Virus genome (UHGV): UHGV-0298894
Source of the DNA: a virus
DNA length: 10,331 nucleotides
Reading direction: 5' to 3' (one strand)
Positions 266-6,007 of this stretch are shown one piece after another. The position numbers and the translations under genes are program-made. Position 1 is the stretch's first letter; each line of letters begins with the position of its first letter. The notes beneath the pieces were generated by a model. It was not told where the DNA came from, did no database searches, and saw only the letters and a list, made by a program, of their open reading frames with translations.

Positions 266-625
266 ATGGATTATTCACAGTTAAGTGATTTTGAAATTAA
301 CAAGCGAGTGGCAATTTGCTGTGGATTTGCTCCCGAAGATTGCGAAATCGCAAAGTTGGGAACATCAATCGTTGGTGTTGAGTGGGATGACGAAACTGGT
401 TATGCAATAAAAACGGTTGATTACTGTAAAAGCCCATCAGACGCAGAGCCGATTATCGTAGAGAACAGAATTGGCATTATTCCAGCGCCAGAAAATGGAT
501 TATGGAAGGCAGCGCATAGAAAAGTTGGCAGTGATAGTACCCCATATCATATGACTCAAGATGAAAACCCACTCCGCGCCGCCATGATTGTCTTTCTCAT
601 GATGCAGGACGCCAATAATGCTTAG
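266..625 (+). CDS. NinX-like protein (DUF2591 family), about 120 aa
   Basis: ORF 224..625 in the track. The likely start is ATG 266, with GAGGAA at 254-259 about 6 nt upstream; ATG 260 (ATGA overlap with the ninE stop) is an alternative. Its position between ninE and ninF matches ninX in P22-type nin regions. Confidence 0.6.
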   Translation: MDYSQLSDFEINKRVAICCGFAPEDCEIAKLGTSIVGVEWDDETGYAIKTVDYCKSPSDAEPIIVENRIGIIPAPENGLWKAAHRKVGSDSTPYHMTQDENPLRAAMIVFLMMQDANNA

Positions 626-794
626 CCCATCCCAATCCCTTCAATACCAGAAAGAAAGCGTCGAGCGGGCTTTAACGTGCGCTAACTGCGGCCAGAAGCT
701 GCATGTGCTGGAAGTTCACGTGTGTGAGCACTGCTGCGCAGAACTGATGAGCGATCCGAATAGCTCAATGTACGAGGAAGAAGACGATGAATGA
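618..794 (+). CDS. ninF: NinF protein (58 aa), Cys-rich
   Basis: ATG 618, stop TGA 792-794. Translation MLSPSQSLQYQKESVERALTCANCGQKLHVLEVHVCEHCCAELMSDPNSSMYEEEDDE matches recalled lambda NinF. It overlaps the ninX-like stop by 8 nt and the next gene as ATGAATGA. Confidence 0.75.
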   Translation: MLSPSQSLQYQKESVERALTCANCGQKLHVLEVHVCEHCCAELMSDPNSSMYEEEDDE

Positions 795-1509
795 GTTAAT
801 AAATGGCAATGCCATCAAAATGACAAGCATTGAAATCGCTGAGTTGGTGGGTAAGCGTCATGACAATGTGAAACGTACCATCGAAACGCTGGCTAAAAAT
901 GGTGTTATCCGGCTTCCTCAAATTGAGGTTTCCGAAAGAATCAATAACTTAGGGTTCAATGTTCAGTACGAGCATTACGTCTTCGAGGGCGAACAAGGTA
1001 AGCGAGACAGTATTGTCGTTGTTGCCCAGTTGTCGCCAGAGTTCACCGCTCGCCTTGTTGACCGCTGGCGAGAGCTTGAAGAAGCTGCGGTTAATATCCC
1101 AAAAACGCTACCAGAAGCGTTGCGCCTTGCTGCTGACCTTGCTGAGCAGAAAATGCAACTGGAAAACCAGCTCGCAATTGCCGCACCTAAAGTTGAGTTT
1201 GCCGATCGCGTTGGCGAGGCCAGCGGAATTTTGATTGGAAACTTTGCAAAGGTTGTCGGTATTGGTCCAAACAAACTGTTTGCGTGGATGCGCGATCACA
1301 AAATCCTTATTGCTTCAGGTTCCCGGCGCAATGTGCCAATGCAGGAATATATGGATCGCGGCTATTTCACAGTGAAAGAAACAGCGTTCAACACAAATCA
1401 CGGAATACAGATATCGTTCACCACAAAAATCACCGGGCGTGGTCAACAGTGGCTGACCAGAAGGCTGCTCTATAGCGGAATGCTGAAAGTAACAGGGGAG
1501 GCTGCTTAA
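787..1509 (+). CDS. Phage antirepressor: N-terminal Rha regulatory domain plus C-terminal KilA-C (ANT) domain
   Basis: 240-aa ORF. The N-terminus (...MTSIEIAELVGKRHDNVKRTIETL...) looks like the Phage_pRha family and the C-terminal half like the KilA-C/ANT antirepressor domain. Start is coupled to the ninF stop. Confidence 0.8.
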   Translation: MNELINGNAIKMTSIEIAELVGKRHDNVKRTIETLAKNGVIRLPQIEVSERINNLGFNVQYEHYVFEGEQGKRDSIVVVAQLSPEFTARLVDRWRELEEAAVNIPKTLPEALRLAADLAEQKMQLENQLAIAAPKVEFADRVGEASGILIGNFAKVVGIGPNKLFAWMRDHKILIASGSRRNVPMQEYMDRGYFTVKETAFNTNHGIQISFTTKITGRGQQWLTRRLLYSGMLKVTGEAA

Positions 1510-1799
1510 TGGCTAAACTACGCAAAGAAGCGCGCGGCAGAGAATGCCAGGTACGTATTTACGGCGTATGCAATGGTAATCCTGAAACTACAGTTCTGGC
1601 ACATTACCGGATGGCTGGAATTTGCGGAACGGGAATAAAGCCTGACGACCTGATCGGCGCATGGGCTTGTAGCGCGTGTCACGATGAAATCGACCGACGC
1701 ACCCATAATCTCGACAACAAAGACGCCAGACTTTACCACCTCGAAGGCGTGATCAGGACGCAGGCGATACTACTGAAGGAGGGGAAGATTAAGCCATGA
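1509..1799 (+). CDS. ybcO: YbcO-like protein (DUF1364, putative nuclease), 96 aa
   Basis: MAKLRKEARGRECQVRIYGVCNGNPETTVLAH...ACSACHDEIDRRTH resembles E. coli DLP12 YbcO, with a Cys/His-rich motif. Start overlaps the Rha stop (TAATG). It sits immediately upstream of rusA, as in DLP12. Confidence 0.75.
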   Translation: MAKLRKEARGRECQVRIYGVCNGNPETTVLAHYRMAGICGTGIKPDDLIGAWACSACHDEIDRRTHNLDNKDARLYHLEGVIRTQAILLKEGKIKP

Positions 1800-2158: not shown

Positions 2159-2343
2159 ACGCCACAATTCAAACGATACCAGAGCTTCTTATCCAGACAC
2201 GAGGCAATCAGACCGAAGTGGCGAGGATGCTTTCCTGCGCAAGAGGAACAGTGCTCAAGTACAACCGAGACAGCAAAGGTGAGCGTCACGTAATAGTTAA
2301 CGGCGTCCTGATGGTCAAACAGGGCAAGAGGGGAAGACGATGA
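2155..2343 (+). CDS. ninH: NinH-like small DNA-binding protein (62 aa)
   Basis: Pattern TIPELL...GNQTEVARML.C.RGTVLKY...G..H.IVNGVLMV parallels recalled lambda NinH. ATGA overlaps on both sides. Confidence 0.75.
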   Translation: MNATIQTIPELLIQTRGNQTEVARMLSCARGTVLKYNRDSKGERHVIVNGVLMVKQGKRGRR

Positions 2344-2963
2344 GACTCGAAAGCGTAGCTAAATTTCACTCGCCAAAAAGCCCGATGATGAGCGACTCAC
2401 CACGGGCCACGGCTTCTGACTCTCTTTCCGGTACTGATGTGATGGCTGCTATGGGGATGGCGCAATCACAAGCCGGATTCGGAATGGCTGCATTCTGCGG
2501 TAAGCATGAACTCAGCCAGAACGACAAACAAAAGGCTATCAACTACCTGATGCAATTTGCACACAAGGTATCGGGGAAATACCGTGGTGTGGCAAAGCTC
2601 GAAGGAAATACTAAGGCAAAGGTACTGCAAGTGCTCGCAACATTCGCTTATGCGGATTATTGCCGTAGTGCCGCGACGCCTGGCGCAAGATGCAGAGATT
2701 GTCACGGTACAGGCCGTGCGGTTGATATAGCAAAAACAGAGCAGTGGGGGAGAGTTGTTGAGAAAGAATGCGGAAGATGCAAAGGTGTCGGCTATTCAAG
2801 GATGCCAGCAAGCGCCGCATATCGCGCTGTGACGATGCTAATCCCAAATCTTACCCAACCCACCTGGTCACGCACTGTTAAGCCGCTGTATGACGCTCTG
2901 GTGGTGCAATGCCACAAAGAAGAGTCAATCGCAGACAACATTTTGAATGCGGTCACACGTTAG
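2340..2963 (+). CDS. Q: Late-gene antiterminator Q (lambda type), 207 aa
   Basis: Translation MRLESVAKFHSPKSPMMSDSPRATASDSLSG...CRDCHGTGRAVD...CGRCKGVGYSR...NILNAVTR is essentially the lambda Q sequence as I recall it, including the zinc-binding Cys motif. It is followed by a pR'/qut-like promoter. Confidence 0.95.
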   Translation: MRLESVAKFHSPKSPMMSDSPRATASDSLSGTDVMAAMGMAQSQAGFGMAAFCGKHELSQNDKQKAINYLMQFAHKVSGKYRGVAKLEGNTKAKVLQVLATFAYADYCRSAATPGARCRDCHGTGRAVDIAKTEQWGRVVEKECGRCKGVGYSRMPASAAYRAVTMLIPNLTQPTWSRTVKPLYDALVVQCHKEESIADNILNAVTR

Positions 2964-3005
2964 CAGCATGATTGCCACGGATGGCAACATATTAACGGCA
3001 TGATA

Positions 3006-3034
3006 TTGACTTTTTGAATAAAGTTGGGTAAATT
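3006..3034 (+). promoter_or_regulatory. Late promoter pR' with overlapping qut (Q-utilisation) site
   Basis: -35 TTGACT (3006-3011), 17-nt spacer, -10 TAAATT (3029-3034), immediately downstream of Q. The sequence matches the lambda pR' region from memory. Confidence 0.8.
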
Positions 3035-3040
3035 TGACCC

Positions 3041-3234
3041 AACGATGGGGTAATTCGCTCGTTGTGGTAGTGAGATGAAAAGAGGCGGCGCTTACTACCG
3101 ATTCCGCCTAGTTGGTCACTTCGACGTATCGTCTGGAACTCCAACCATCGCAGGCTGAGAGGTCTGCAAAATGCAATCCCGAAACAGTTCGCAGGTAATA
3201 GTTAGAGCCTGCATAACGGTTTCGGGATTTTTTA
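3041..3234 (+). ncRNA. 6S-type short late leader transcript (pR' to tR')
   Basis: Predicted start about 7 nt after the -10, ending at the tR' U-run, about 194 nt as for lambda 6S RNA. Boundaries are inferred from the promoter and terminator positions. Confidence 0.65.
3175..3234 (+). terminator. Intrinsic terminator tR'
   Basis: Perfect 11-bp inverted repeat AATCCCGAAAC (3175-3185) / GTTTCGGGATT (3219-3229) enclosing an inner GCAGG/CCTGC hairpin (3191-3212), followed by a T-run. Confidence 0.85.
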
Positions 3235-3243
3235 TATCTGTGT

Positions 3244-3259
3244 AACAGGTAAGAGCATT
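3244..3259 (+). repeat. Left copy of 16-nt direct repeat AACAGGTAAGAGCATT
   Basis: Read directly from the sequence; pairs with 3660..3675 (15 of 16 identical). Confidence 0.7.
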
Positions 3260-3659
3260 CTCCCTTATGGGGCTTGGCTTAAATGCACCGAGTGCTCTTA
3301 TCGTTGTGGCAGCACAACGATAGTTTTCGTCAGAGTTGGCGACTTTGCGGGTTTTTAGAAACTGACCACAAAGATAAATGCAAACGATGATTTGATGTTG
3401 ATGGCGGCCTAAGAGACCAAAATCACTGGGTCTTCCGACTCCCAGCTACCAAATTCGGCGCACTGGCCCGGTGTGATTAATAATGGGCACCCATTCAAAT
3501 GTACTCTCGGTAGGTTCGATTCCTGACTAGACCCAGATGGCGACGGGGAGGGTCCAATTGAGTGGGTAACAACGGGCATGTCGCCTTAGTAAATCCCTCA
3601 AGGGTGCGACGCATAGACCGGTACTAGCGTCGCCGTTAGCTCCACGAAACGGAGCGCAC
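3260..3659 (+). other. Non-coding segment in the late leader between tR' and S, apparently absent from lambda; hairpin-rich candidate structured RNA or cargo remnant
   Basis: The Q-stop to S-start distance is 1102 bp here against about 676 bp in lambda (recalled coordinates). No sense-strand ORF exceeds 35 codons. Contains a perfect 10-bp hairpin (3299-3322), hairpins at 3606-3633 and 3639-3655, and a GGTTCGATTCC T-loop-like motif (3513-3523). Confidence 0.5.
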
Positions 3660-3675
3660 AACAGGTAAGAGTATT
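3660..3675 (+). repeat. Right copy of 16-nt direct repeat AACAGGTAAGAGTATT
   Basis: Read directly from the sequence; one mismatch (C/T) against 3244..3259. Confidence 0.7.
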
Positions 3676-4043
3676 TGTAGAGTTCGACTCTCTATCGTGG
3701 GCTTTTTCCAGCGATGCGAGCCATAAATGCTCTTTCCGTTGTGCTGAATTAAGCGAATACCGGAAGCAGAACCGGATCATCAAATGCGTACAGGCGTCAT
3801 CGCCGCCCAGCAACAGCACAACCCAAACTGAGCCGTAGCCACTGGCTATCCTGAATTCATCAGTGATAGTTACGCTGCGGCCTTCTACACATGACCTCGT
3901 GAAAGCGGGTGGCAAGAGGCTGCGCTAACAACCTCATGCCGTTTTGCCCGTGCATATCGGTCACGAACAAATCTGATTACTAAACACAGTAGCCTGGATT
4001 TGTTCTATCAGTAATCGACCTTATTCCTAATTAAATAGAGCAA

Positions 4044-4074
4044 ATCCCCTTATTGGGGGTAAGACATGAAGATG
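4044..4074 (+). promoter_or_regulatory. S translation-initiation control region (sdi hairpin plus dual start Met1/Met3)
   Basis: CCCC-TTATT-GGGGG hairpin (4046-4059) sequesters the Shine-Dalgarno sequence. Tandem starts ATG 4066 (S107 antiholin) and ATG 4072 (S105 holin) give MKMPEK, as in lambda. Confidence 0.6.
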
Positions 4075-5485: not shown

Positions 5486-6007
5486 ATGAATATCGTGCCA
5501 CTTAACTACAAAGGTGAAATTGTCAGTTTCAACACTGATGGTTGGATCAACGTCACAGGTGTTGCTGAGAGATTTGGGAAACGCATTGATAACTGGATGC
5601 GTTTGGCAGAAACGCTTGAATACGTTCGTGCTTTAGACGAAGCGTTGACCGGGAAAGAATCTCAAATTTTACATCCCTCACAATCGAGGTATGTAAAAAC
5701 CAGCAAGGCACGAAAGGACAGGGGTGGTGGTACGTGGCTACATCCAAAACTTTCAGTTGCATTTGCCCGTTGGTGTGATGCTCGTTTTGCTGTGTGGTGC
5801 GACCTGCACATTGATAGTCTGCTTCGCGGTGAACTGACTGAGCAGCAGAAATATGAGCAAGCATGTCGCATTCGCGATGACCGGAAATCAAAAGCCAGCA
5901 ATGGGGCAAGAGAGATGGCTCGCTGGCGATGGGATAAGCCGGTTATTGAAGCAAATGTCGAGTACTGGCGCGAGCAACTGCAGTTGACTCTCGATATCGC
6001 GTGCTGA
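5486..6007 (+). CDS. KilA-N domain protein (173 aa)
   Basis: N-terminal half (...GWINVTGVAERFGKR...GTWLHPKLSVAFARWCDARFAVWCD...) has the hallmarks of the KilA-N (APSES-like) DNA-binding domain. AGGT lies 8 nt upstream of the ATG. Confidence 0.75.
   Translation: MNIVPLNYKGEIVSFNTDGWINVTGVAERFGKRIDNWMRLAETLEYVRALDEALTGKESQILHPSQSRYVKTSKARKDRGGGTWLHPKLSVAFARWCDARFAVWCDLHIDSLLRGELTEQQKYEQACRIRDDRKSKASNGAREMARWRWDKPVIEANVEYWREQLQLTLDIAC

Follow-up and report, generated by a model that had tools for sequence, protein, structure and literature searches.

What does a protein that joins a Rha-type DNA-binding domain to a KilAC domain do in the middle of a lambdoid nin operon, and which DNA does it recognise? 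The question is raised by the window analysed here, the whole 10,331-nucleotide stretch of the virus genome UHGV-0298894, in which a 240-residue open reading frame (ORF) with an ATG start lies at 787–1509 on the plus strand, between ninF and the ybcO–rusA pair. The original prediction had treated this arrangement as unusual and uncharacterised and had called the product an antirepressor. Judged by sequence identity, the gene is roi, long known from lambdoid phages of the HK022/HK97/HK620 type and not new, and the spot that it occupies is the usual place of this named gene in HK022, HK97 and HK620, which disposes of the claim that the arrangement is unusual. As a gene call roi is routine, having been known for three decades and having matches in 1110 of 5426 complete Escherichia coli genomes, about a fifth. 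The apparent interest of the sequence lies not in the gene itself, but in a conserved operator that the gene seems to carry for its own product and in an apparent code that links residues of the protein to bases of that operator. Few regulators whose role is unknown are as common in temperate phages as the Roi, Rha and KilAC proteins, and in Shiga-toxin (Stx) phages Q and the toxin genes are found just downstream of roi.

A palindrome and an IHF consensus within roi

A perfect 6+1+6 palindrome, CCTCAA-A-TTGAGG, occupies positions 916–928 and falls on codons P44–V48, inside the segment that encodes the DNA-binding domain, and we propose it as the Roi operator. A generic repeat finder missed it; it was found by eye and then by script. 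Its conservation was followed in 80 homologue loci of 36–90% identity, taken from one-genome-per-species contigs that include Vibrio, Acinetobacter, Pseudomonas, Xenorhabdus, Burkholderiales and Rhizobiales. At the equivalent codons, perfect palindromes whose arms measure 5–11 bp recurred, against a background of 0.0013 per centre. When complementary pairs were scored at the best in-frame centre after the predicted recognition helix in 73 loci, all six pairs were complementary in 42 loci, five of six in 23 and four of six in 8, compared with random expectations of 0.8%, 6% and 35%, respectively, and the centre lay 10–11 codons after L35 in 61 of 65 sites.

An exact consensus for integration host factor (IHF), WATCAANNNNTTR (AATCAATAACTTA), lies on the plus strand at 939–951, covering codons R51–L55, 17 bp from the palindrome centre, and is the single match between 500 and 1800. 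In 8 of 11 sequences with the IHF consensus the palindrome centre was located exactly 17 bp upstream of it, and other palindromes were found at the identical offset, namely CTGCA-T-TGCAG in HK022, CGCCA-A-TGGCG in PPyecE and CGCCA-G-TGGCG in a Pantoea locus. The consensus stands at equivalent codons in roi of HK022 and HK97, in PhiR12, WGPS6 and PPyecE, and in P22 rha. It was present in 6 of 75 diverse genome loci, at a fixed distance of −82 or −85 nt from a conserved anchor with a background of 0.07 per kb, and was kept at the same codons in 13 sequences whose flanks are otherwise divergent.

Both elements lie in coding DNA and could in principle be by-products of coding constraint or of chance, given that the IHF match falls on a conserved I-N-[ND]-L-G peptide of the wing and the commonest palindrome on a recurrent P-Q-I-E. 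However, the peptides encoded at the palindrome vary (PQIE, PPMG, PPMA, PPLV, PPME, PAMQ, PALQ and APLA), and the dyad is retained by coupled substitutions, in which the silent third position of the Pro codon (CCN) is matched by an amino-acid replacement two codons later (GGG, GCG, GTG or GAG). Perfect 6/6 sites occur in 58% of loci where 0.8% would be expected. At the IHF consensus, which every allele with the wing peptide carries, substitutions are confined to the N positions; no variation is seen in the ATC and TTA codons or in the A before them, whereas the adjoining Gly codon varies between alleles. We therefore regard an origin by coding constraint or chance as extremely improbable.

The exact operator sequence occurs once in the window, once in the whole genome of phage N7 (the best match and closest sequenced relative of the window's phage) and once in HK022, with its own exact operator, always inside roi. 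Further copies amounted to one 3-mismatch site in the window, which is at chance level, three 2-mismatch sites in N7, not clearly above chance, and only 1–2-mismatch sites in HK022. A Roi regulon was accordingly dropped, the near matches being at or close to chance in all three sequences. The 3-mismatch relative in the window, CCTAAAGTTGAGT at 1186–1198, lies 270 bp downstream within roi, on codons P134–F138 of a conserved APKVEF motif; it is also found in N7, would not match an operator of the HK022 type and is probably fortuitous. One of the 2-mismatch sites in N7, CGTCAAATTGTGG at 15599–15611, lies inside the ant gene of that phage and is not above chance. An arrangement of the MerR kind, with a promoter around the palindrome, was searched for by eye and rejected, the best candidate, TTGAGG-16-TAACTT, agreeing at 7 of 12 positions only. 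Terminator-like matches inside roi were at chance level.

Residues of the recognition helix covary with operator bases

Which part of Roi would read the palindrome was approached through a structural model. An AlphaFold2 model built from 77 diverse homologues, with a predicted local distance difference test score (pLDDT) of 78, contains a strand at residues 11–13, helices at 14–21 and 25–37 and a hairpin at 45–67, followed by long helices and a second small helix-hairpin domain; a model from 28 close homologues (pLDDT 40) was discarded. The helix at residues 25–37 (HDNVKRTIETLAK), with its codons at 859–897 on the plus strand, is the predicted recognition helix, and the model together with the covariation described here points to N27, R30 and T34 as its specificity residues. 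These positions are spaced i, i+3 and i+7 and lie on one face of the modelled helix.

Each of the three residues tracked one base of the half-site in all 45 of the 45 parsed loci, with zero exceptions. Residue 27 was paired with base −4 (N with T in 28 loci, S with A in 8, D with G in 5 and K with C in 4), residue 30 with base −3 (R or Q with C in 36, V or I with G in 9) and residue 34 with base −2 (R with C in 26, any other residue with A in 19). Eight loci missed by the regular expression fit the code when inspected by eye, and the imperfect sites obey the same rule. All four combinations of N or S at residue 27 with R or T at residue 34 were found with the predicted half-sites, and each half-site type was present with several wing lengths, which indicates that the match of helix and operator has survived reshuffling of the sequence that follows the operator. 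On this evidence the palindrome most probably serves as operator for the very protein that it helps to encode, and 916–928 is the candidate site in the window. The window combines the operator CCTCAA-A-TTGAGG with the helix NVKRTIETL and HK022 combines CTGCA-T-TGCAG with NVKVSIDRL, and from the patch that holds helix, operator and wing (residues 22–64) the two proteins are predicted to differ in DNA specificity.

The helix–operator pair has also been joined to a different protein. Phage PPyecE_EH1910 encodes at 1468–2175 a 235-residue protein with a Rha-N domain and no KilAC domain, directly downstream of cro in the early right operon, and its gene has retained, at unchanged offsets, the dyad CGCCA-A-TGGCG and the IHF consensus; the segment formed by helix, operator and IHF site thus behaves as a portable cassette. 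We lean, somewhat beyond an even judgement, towards a general reading in which Roi and Rha-N proteins are widespread self-targeting regulators, whose operator lies within the codons of their own DNA-binding domain about 10–11 codons past the helix and is read by a code that assigns residue 27 to bases ±4, residue 30 to ±3 and residue 34 to ±2. Helix and operator, with the IHF site in enterobacterial alleles, would then form a specificity cassette of about 100 bp that is exchanged among phages and joined to different effector domains (KilAC, ORF11CD3 and others). The searchable literature yielded nothing relevant on a Rha or Roi operator or on a recognition code, and the operator code and its family-wide conservation appear to be undescribed there. 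If the code is true, it offers a compact DNA-binding module with predictable specificity.

A model of Roi control and the evidence against it

We consider it likely, with good confidence, that Roi, itself a known protein, is a sequence-specific, self-binding, probably autoregulatory and IHF-assisted regulator. Its N-terminal Rha-type winged helix-turn-helix, probably as a dimer, would bind the 13-bp palindrome at 916–928 within the codons of its own domain, host IHF would occupy the adjacent consensus at 939–951, and the two proteins would form a nucleoprotein complex inside the roi reading frame. Given the single good operator per phage genome, the output is most likely local and would consist of repression of roi by its own product, possibly together with a polar effect on the downstream ybcO–rusA–ninH–Q transcript, in which the late-gene antiterminator Q (2340–2963, plus strand; Pfam Antiterm, E = 1.3e-57) would be a potential target. 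The C-terminal KilAC domain would act as the effector part. According to papers that cite it, the study that first described roi, in phage HK022 (Clerget & Boccard 1996, J Bacteriol 178:4077), concerned a protein that binds DNA and has been linked to lytic growth on IHF mutants, which it blocks. The Rha proteins of phi80 and P22 prevent growth in hosts defective in IHF, and rha is regulated by IHF (Henthorn & Friedman 1995). In the model proposed here, control would fail when IHF is absent and Roi would become inhibitory to lytic growth, as in the published phenotype; a need for IHF in proper control would explain why both Roi and Rha inhibit growth without it. A defined operator, an IHF site and a predicted residue–base code make the role of Roi directly testable.

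Several points weigh against this account. Helix and operator are separated by only about 30–60 bp, and co-inheritance could explain part of their covariation; the way in which residue/base pairs are combined and the independent shuffling of the wing make co-inheritance less likely, without eliminating it. No sigma-70-like promoter was detected at or by the site near roi, and no −35/−10 pair surrounds the dyad. The Stx-phage roi alleles of 24B and YYZ-2008 are without the IHF consensus and their dyad has decayed, showing that some alleles do without the element. An IHF-stabilised roadblock, taken alone, leaves the harm caused by IHF loss unexplained. The 1996 HK022 study reportedly placed a Roi site in its own gene beside an IHF site, a pair that need not coincide with 916–928 and 939–951. 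Finally, 18 of the 39 mismatches in imperfect sites are of the G-T type, a spectrum that by itself is compatible with an RNA hairpin.

The last point bears on the possibility that the palindrome is not a DNA operator and instead acts as a hairpin in roi mRNA, as a signal for translation, stability or processing. Palindromes do fold as hairpins, the arms reach 10–11 bp in some homologues, the G-T mismatches are compatible with G-U pairs, and in one clade the innermost pair is non-pairing, leaving a 3-nt loop. However, 16 of the 39 mismatches are A-C or A-G, and in most sites the innermost A-T pair encloses a single central nucleotide, a geometry impossible in RNA. A hairpin offers no explanation for the agreement, free of exceptions, between its sequence and three residues on one side of the helix of the encoded protein, and the citing papers report Roi as DNA-binding. 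An RNA signal is thus very improbable, and the operator reading is retained.

What the KilAC domain may do

The output of the C-terminal half is a separate matter, on which the original prediction had taken the view that Roi, expressed from the delayed-early pR transcript, could inactivate either the phage's own repressor or that of a co-resident heteroimmune prophage. The domain assignment behind that view holds, but the function does not follow from it, as the label is given by homology to the C-terminal part of P1 Ant1, and P22 Ant is unrelated. Over 143 residues the C-terminal part of Roi has 57% identity to P1 Ant1, whose annotation is antirepressor; Pfam and PHROG likewise name their families 'antirepressor' (PHROG 63, 'anti-repressor Ant', matches the window protein with E = 2.5e-97), and in Stx phages roi often directly follows another ant-like gene. 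Against this, the KilAC domain of Roi is also 67% identical in P1 KilA, a different protein, so that a label taken from one P1 protein would apply equally to another of different role, and the KilAC domain of Listeria AriS inhibits SOS, while that of phi11 Gp07 reportedly inhibits E. coli growth. The 1996 HK022 abstract reportedly already likened the C-terminal half of Roi to both Ant1 and KilA.

Expression and context also speak against an antirepressor. Known antirepressors are under dedicated tight control, such as that exerted by arc, mnt and sar in P22, whereas roi has no promoter of its own, is overlapped by nin genes at both ends and would be transcribed only once the phage's own repressor is off. 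Phage N7 has a separate arc/ant module besides roi, located at 15252–16429, P22-like in type (immI) and encoding arc and a 311-residue 'antirepressor protein ant'. The signature of the Roi N-domain is that of a DNA-binding protein with its own operator, the domains of P22 Ant are unrelated to Roi, and the searchable literature holds no experimental report of repressor binding by Roi. An antirepressor function of Roi is not supported, the database label reflecting homology; we consider it unlikely, and the name 'antirepressor' should not be taken for a function.

A host-directed role overlaps with the model of self-binding control and differs from it in the pay-off. In this case the KilAC domain would hit a host target, either RecA and the SOS response, as for AriS, or cell division and viability, as for P1 KilA and phi11 Gp07, while the Rha-N domain, the operator and the IHF site set the dose. 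In AriS the KilAC domain by itself inhibits SOS and the N-domain controls phage genes, the KilA-C domain of phi11 Gp07 is reported to retain growth inhibition in E. coli, and Roi shares the noted identity with the C-terminal half of P1 KilA. The single operator per genome likewise suggests a DNA-binding part without a regulon beyond roi. However, AriS and Gp07 come from Firmicutes phages and are likened to Roi by domain only, and the Roi phenotype described in the citing papers is one of phage growth, not of host killing. A host target is therefore a tentative proposal, plausible enough to keep in view though somewhat short of probable, beside the preferred reading of Roi as a self-binding, IHF-assisted regulator.

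roi and its genomic context

The identification of the gene rests on its domains, its neighbours and its relatives. A profile hidden Markov model search placed both domains of the predicted Rha-N/KilA-C protein above the Pfam cut-offs: Phage_pRha (PF09669) at residues 12–99 (820–1083, plus strand; E = 5.8e-9, 36.8 bits against a cut-off of 29.9) and ANT/KilAC (PF03374) at residues 126–228 (1162–1470, plus strand; E = 1.7e-32, 112.4 bits against 25.3), the latter also assigned by identity to P1 KilA and Ant1. With 18.1 bits against a cut-off of 45.95 for the NCBIfam Rha family TIGR02681, the window protein is, by these scores, a divergent member of the Rha family. PADLOC gave no match for Roi.

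The place between ninF and ybcO–rusA was borne out by Pfam matches of the neighbours, and the gene order of the window is ninE–ninX–ninF–roi–ybcO–rusA–ninH–Q, with which the PHROGs agree. NinE (87–263), NinX (263–625) and NinH (2155–2343) were assigned by Pfam, ninF (618–794, plus strand) by Pfam NinF and PHROG 672, and ybcO (1509–1799) and rusA (1796–2158), together spanning 1509–2158 on the plus strand, by Pfam YbcO (E = 2.9e-44) and RusA (E = 1.7e-16). The overlaps predicted on both sides are present: the roi start (ATG at 787–789) overlaps the ninF stop by 8 nt in ATGAATGA at 787–794 (plus strand), and the roi stop codon TAA (1507–1509) shares one base with the ybcO ATG (1509–1511) in TAATG at 1507–1511 (plus strand). 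The annotated roi genes of HK022 and HK97 stand in the identical order ninF–roi–ybcO–rusA–ninH–Q. As had been stated, the nin region of lambda is without such a gene, passing straight from ninF (Nin56) to ninG (Nin204), and P22 has none there either.

A 3-kb nin segment of the window is 94–98% identical to HK97, HK022, HK620, HK140, HK633, mEpX1/X2, CUS-3, N7 and Kapi1, whose annotations call the gene roi, 'Roi protein' or 'DNA-binding protein'. The DNA of roi itself is 97.9–98.5% identical to that of CUS-3 and HK633, and HK620 is about 97% identical across the nin–Q region of the window. Among the E. coli matches, the 20 best-matching of the 1110 records all had NinF on one side of roi and DUF1364/YbcO on the other. 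In Stx phages (24B, 933W type, YYZ-2008 and WGPS6) roi lies in the nin region upstream of ninG.

Several database entries deserve mention. Some Roi versions (two of 304 residues and two of 294) are longer at the N terminus by 54–64 residues, and certain of these N-extended versions carry a different precomputed N-terminal Pfam match; they may be gene calls or frameshift fusions through the ninF/roi overlap. A 3.9-kb contig labelled 'MAG: Bacillota bacterium' (metagenome-assembled genome; JAEZCC010000011.1) carries a roi 90% identical to that of the window, with an enterobacterial operator and IHF site, and most likely stems from an enterobacterial phage, having been binned by mistake with a Firmicutes assembly. 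The decayed dyad of 24B (roi at 2495–3223) and YYZ-2008 reads CCTTCA-A-TGCAAA, where the helix NVRISIERL predicts CCTGCA-A-TGCAGG, and roi of these two phages is preceded by an 'Ant' gene with ORF6N and P22_AR_C domains. IS629 insertions into this Stx-type roi are reported for some O157 Stx2a phages.

Other features of the window

A second regulator of related build lies outside the nin region. A 173-residue protein with a KilA-N domain (Pfam, E = 8e-22) is encoded at 5486–6007 on the plus strand, after the Rz spanin gene, in a spot equivalent to that of rha in P22 (P22 39575–40180). The C-terminal third of this protein matches the 'Rha-like' PHROG 518, and PADLOC returned a weak match to PDC-S22 (E = 1e-5). 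With Roi and this protein, the window holds two regulators built from the shuffled domains of the KilA/Rha/Bro group.

The interval between Q and the holin gene (2964–4065) is 97% identical to the lambda pR'/qut/tR' region over 58% of its length, and includes about 460 bp of extra DNA without a plus-strand ORF of at least 40 residues. It contains a 105-residue ORF on the minus strand at 3598–3915, with no PHROG match, a promoter-like site at 3006–3034 and a terminator-like hairpin at 3298–3323. A scan of the window revealed no tRNA genes and no Rfam families.

Comparison with known systems

The closest counterparts are the roi genes of HK022, HK97 and HK620, which resemble that of the window in length, in position from ninF to ybcO–rusA–ninH–Q, in the overlaps and in the intragenic IHF consensus. 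At the protein level the window Roi is 87% and 86% identical to Roi of HK022 and HK97, respectively, over 240/241 residues. The differences are confined to residues 22–64 and a few C-terminal positions, and the former patch comprises the recognition helix, the operator and the wing.

The Rha proteins of phi80 and P22 share with Roi the same kind of IHF-dependent growth phenotype. P22 Rha has the Phage_pRha N-domain, 40% identity over the helix–wing segment and AATCAATAACTTA at the same codons. By contrast, it ends in an ORF11CD3 domain instead of KilAC, its gene lies in the late region after the lysis genes, and its inverted repeat, CGCA-TTTT-TGCG, has 4-bp arms and a 4-nt spacer rather than forming a dyad with a 1-nt centre.

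The proteins that resemble Roi in the C-terminal half differ from it in the N-terminal half. P1 Ant1/Ant2 have the KilAC domain, with 57% identity over Roi residues 73–212, but the first 230 residues of Ant1 match nothing in Pfam and lack a Rha domain, and the gene lies in a dedicated immunity region (immI) beside c4, not in a nin operon. P1 KilA is the closest relative of the C-terminal half (KilAC, 67% identity over Roi residues 104–233), whereas its N-terminal domain is KilA-N, not Rha. Listeria AriS, in which the KilAC domain inhibits the SOS response and the N-domain regulates phage genes, and Staphylococcus aureus phi11 Gp07, whose KilA-C domain reportedly inhibits E. coli growth or causes filamentation, are KilAC-domain regulators like Roi, from Firmicutes phages. 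P22 Ant, the archetypal antirepressor, consists of P22_AR_N and P22_AR_C only and is not significantly similar to Roi, with which it has the functional label alone in common; its control is exerted by arc, mnt and sar in immI.

A looser likeness concerns fold. Protein and profile sequence searches of the PDB returned nothing, and Foldseek against the PDB gave no hit with E below 0.09; the evidence on fold is weak. The modelled Roi N-domain nevertheless recalls MerR-type regulators (the DNA-binding domain of pSK1 Par, RacA and TipAL) in its small strand-helix-helix-hairpin domain followed by long helices and in its putative short, dyad-symmetric target. Unlike the targets of those regulators, the dyad of roi does not lie in the spacer of an over-long-spaced promoter, and is instead embedded in the codons of the domain that is predicted to read it.

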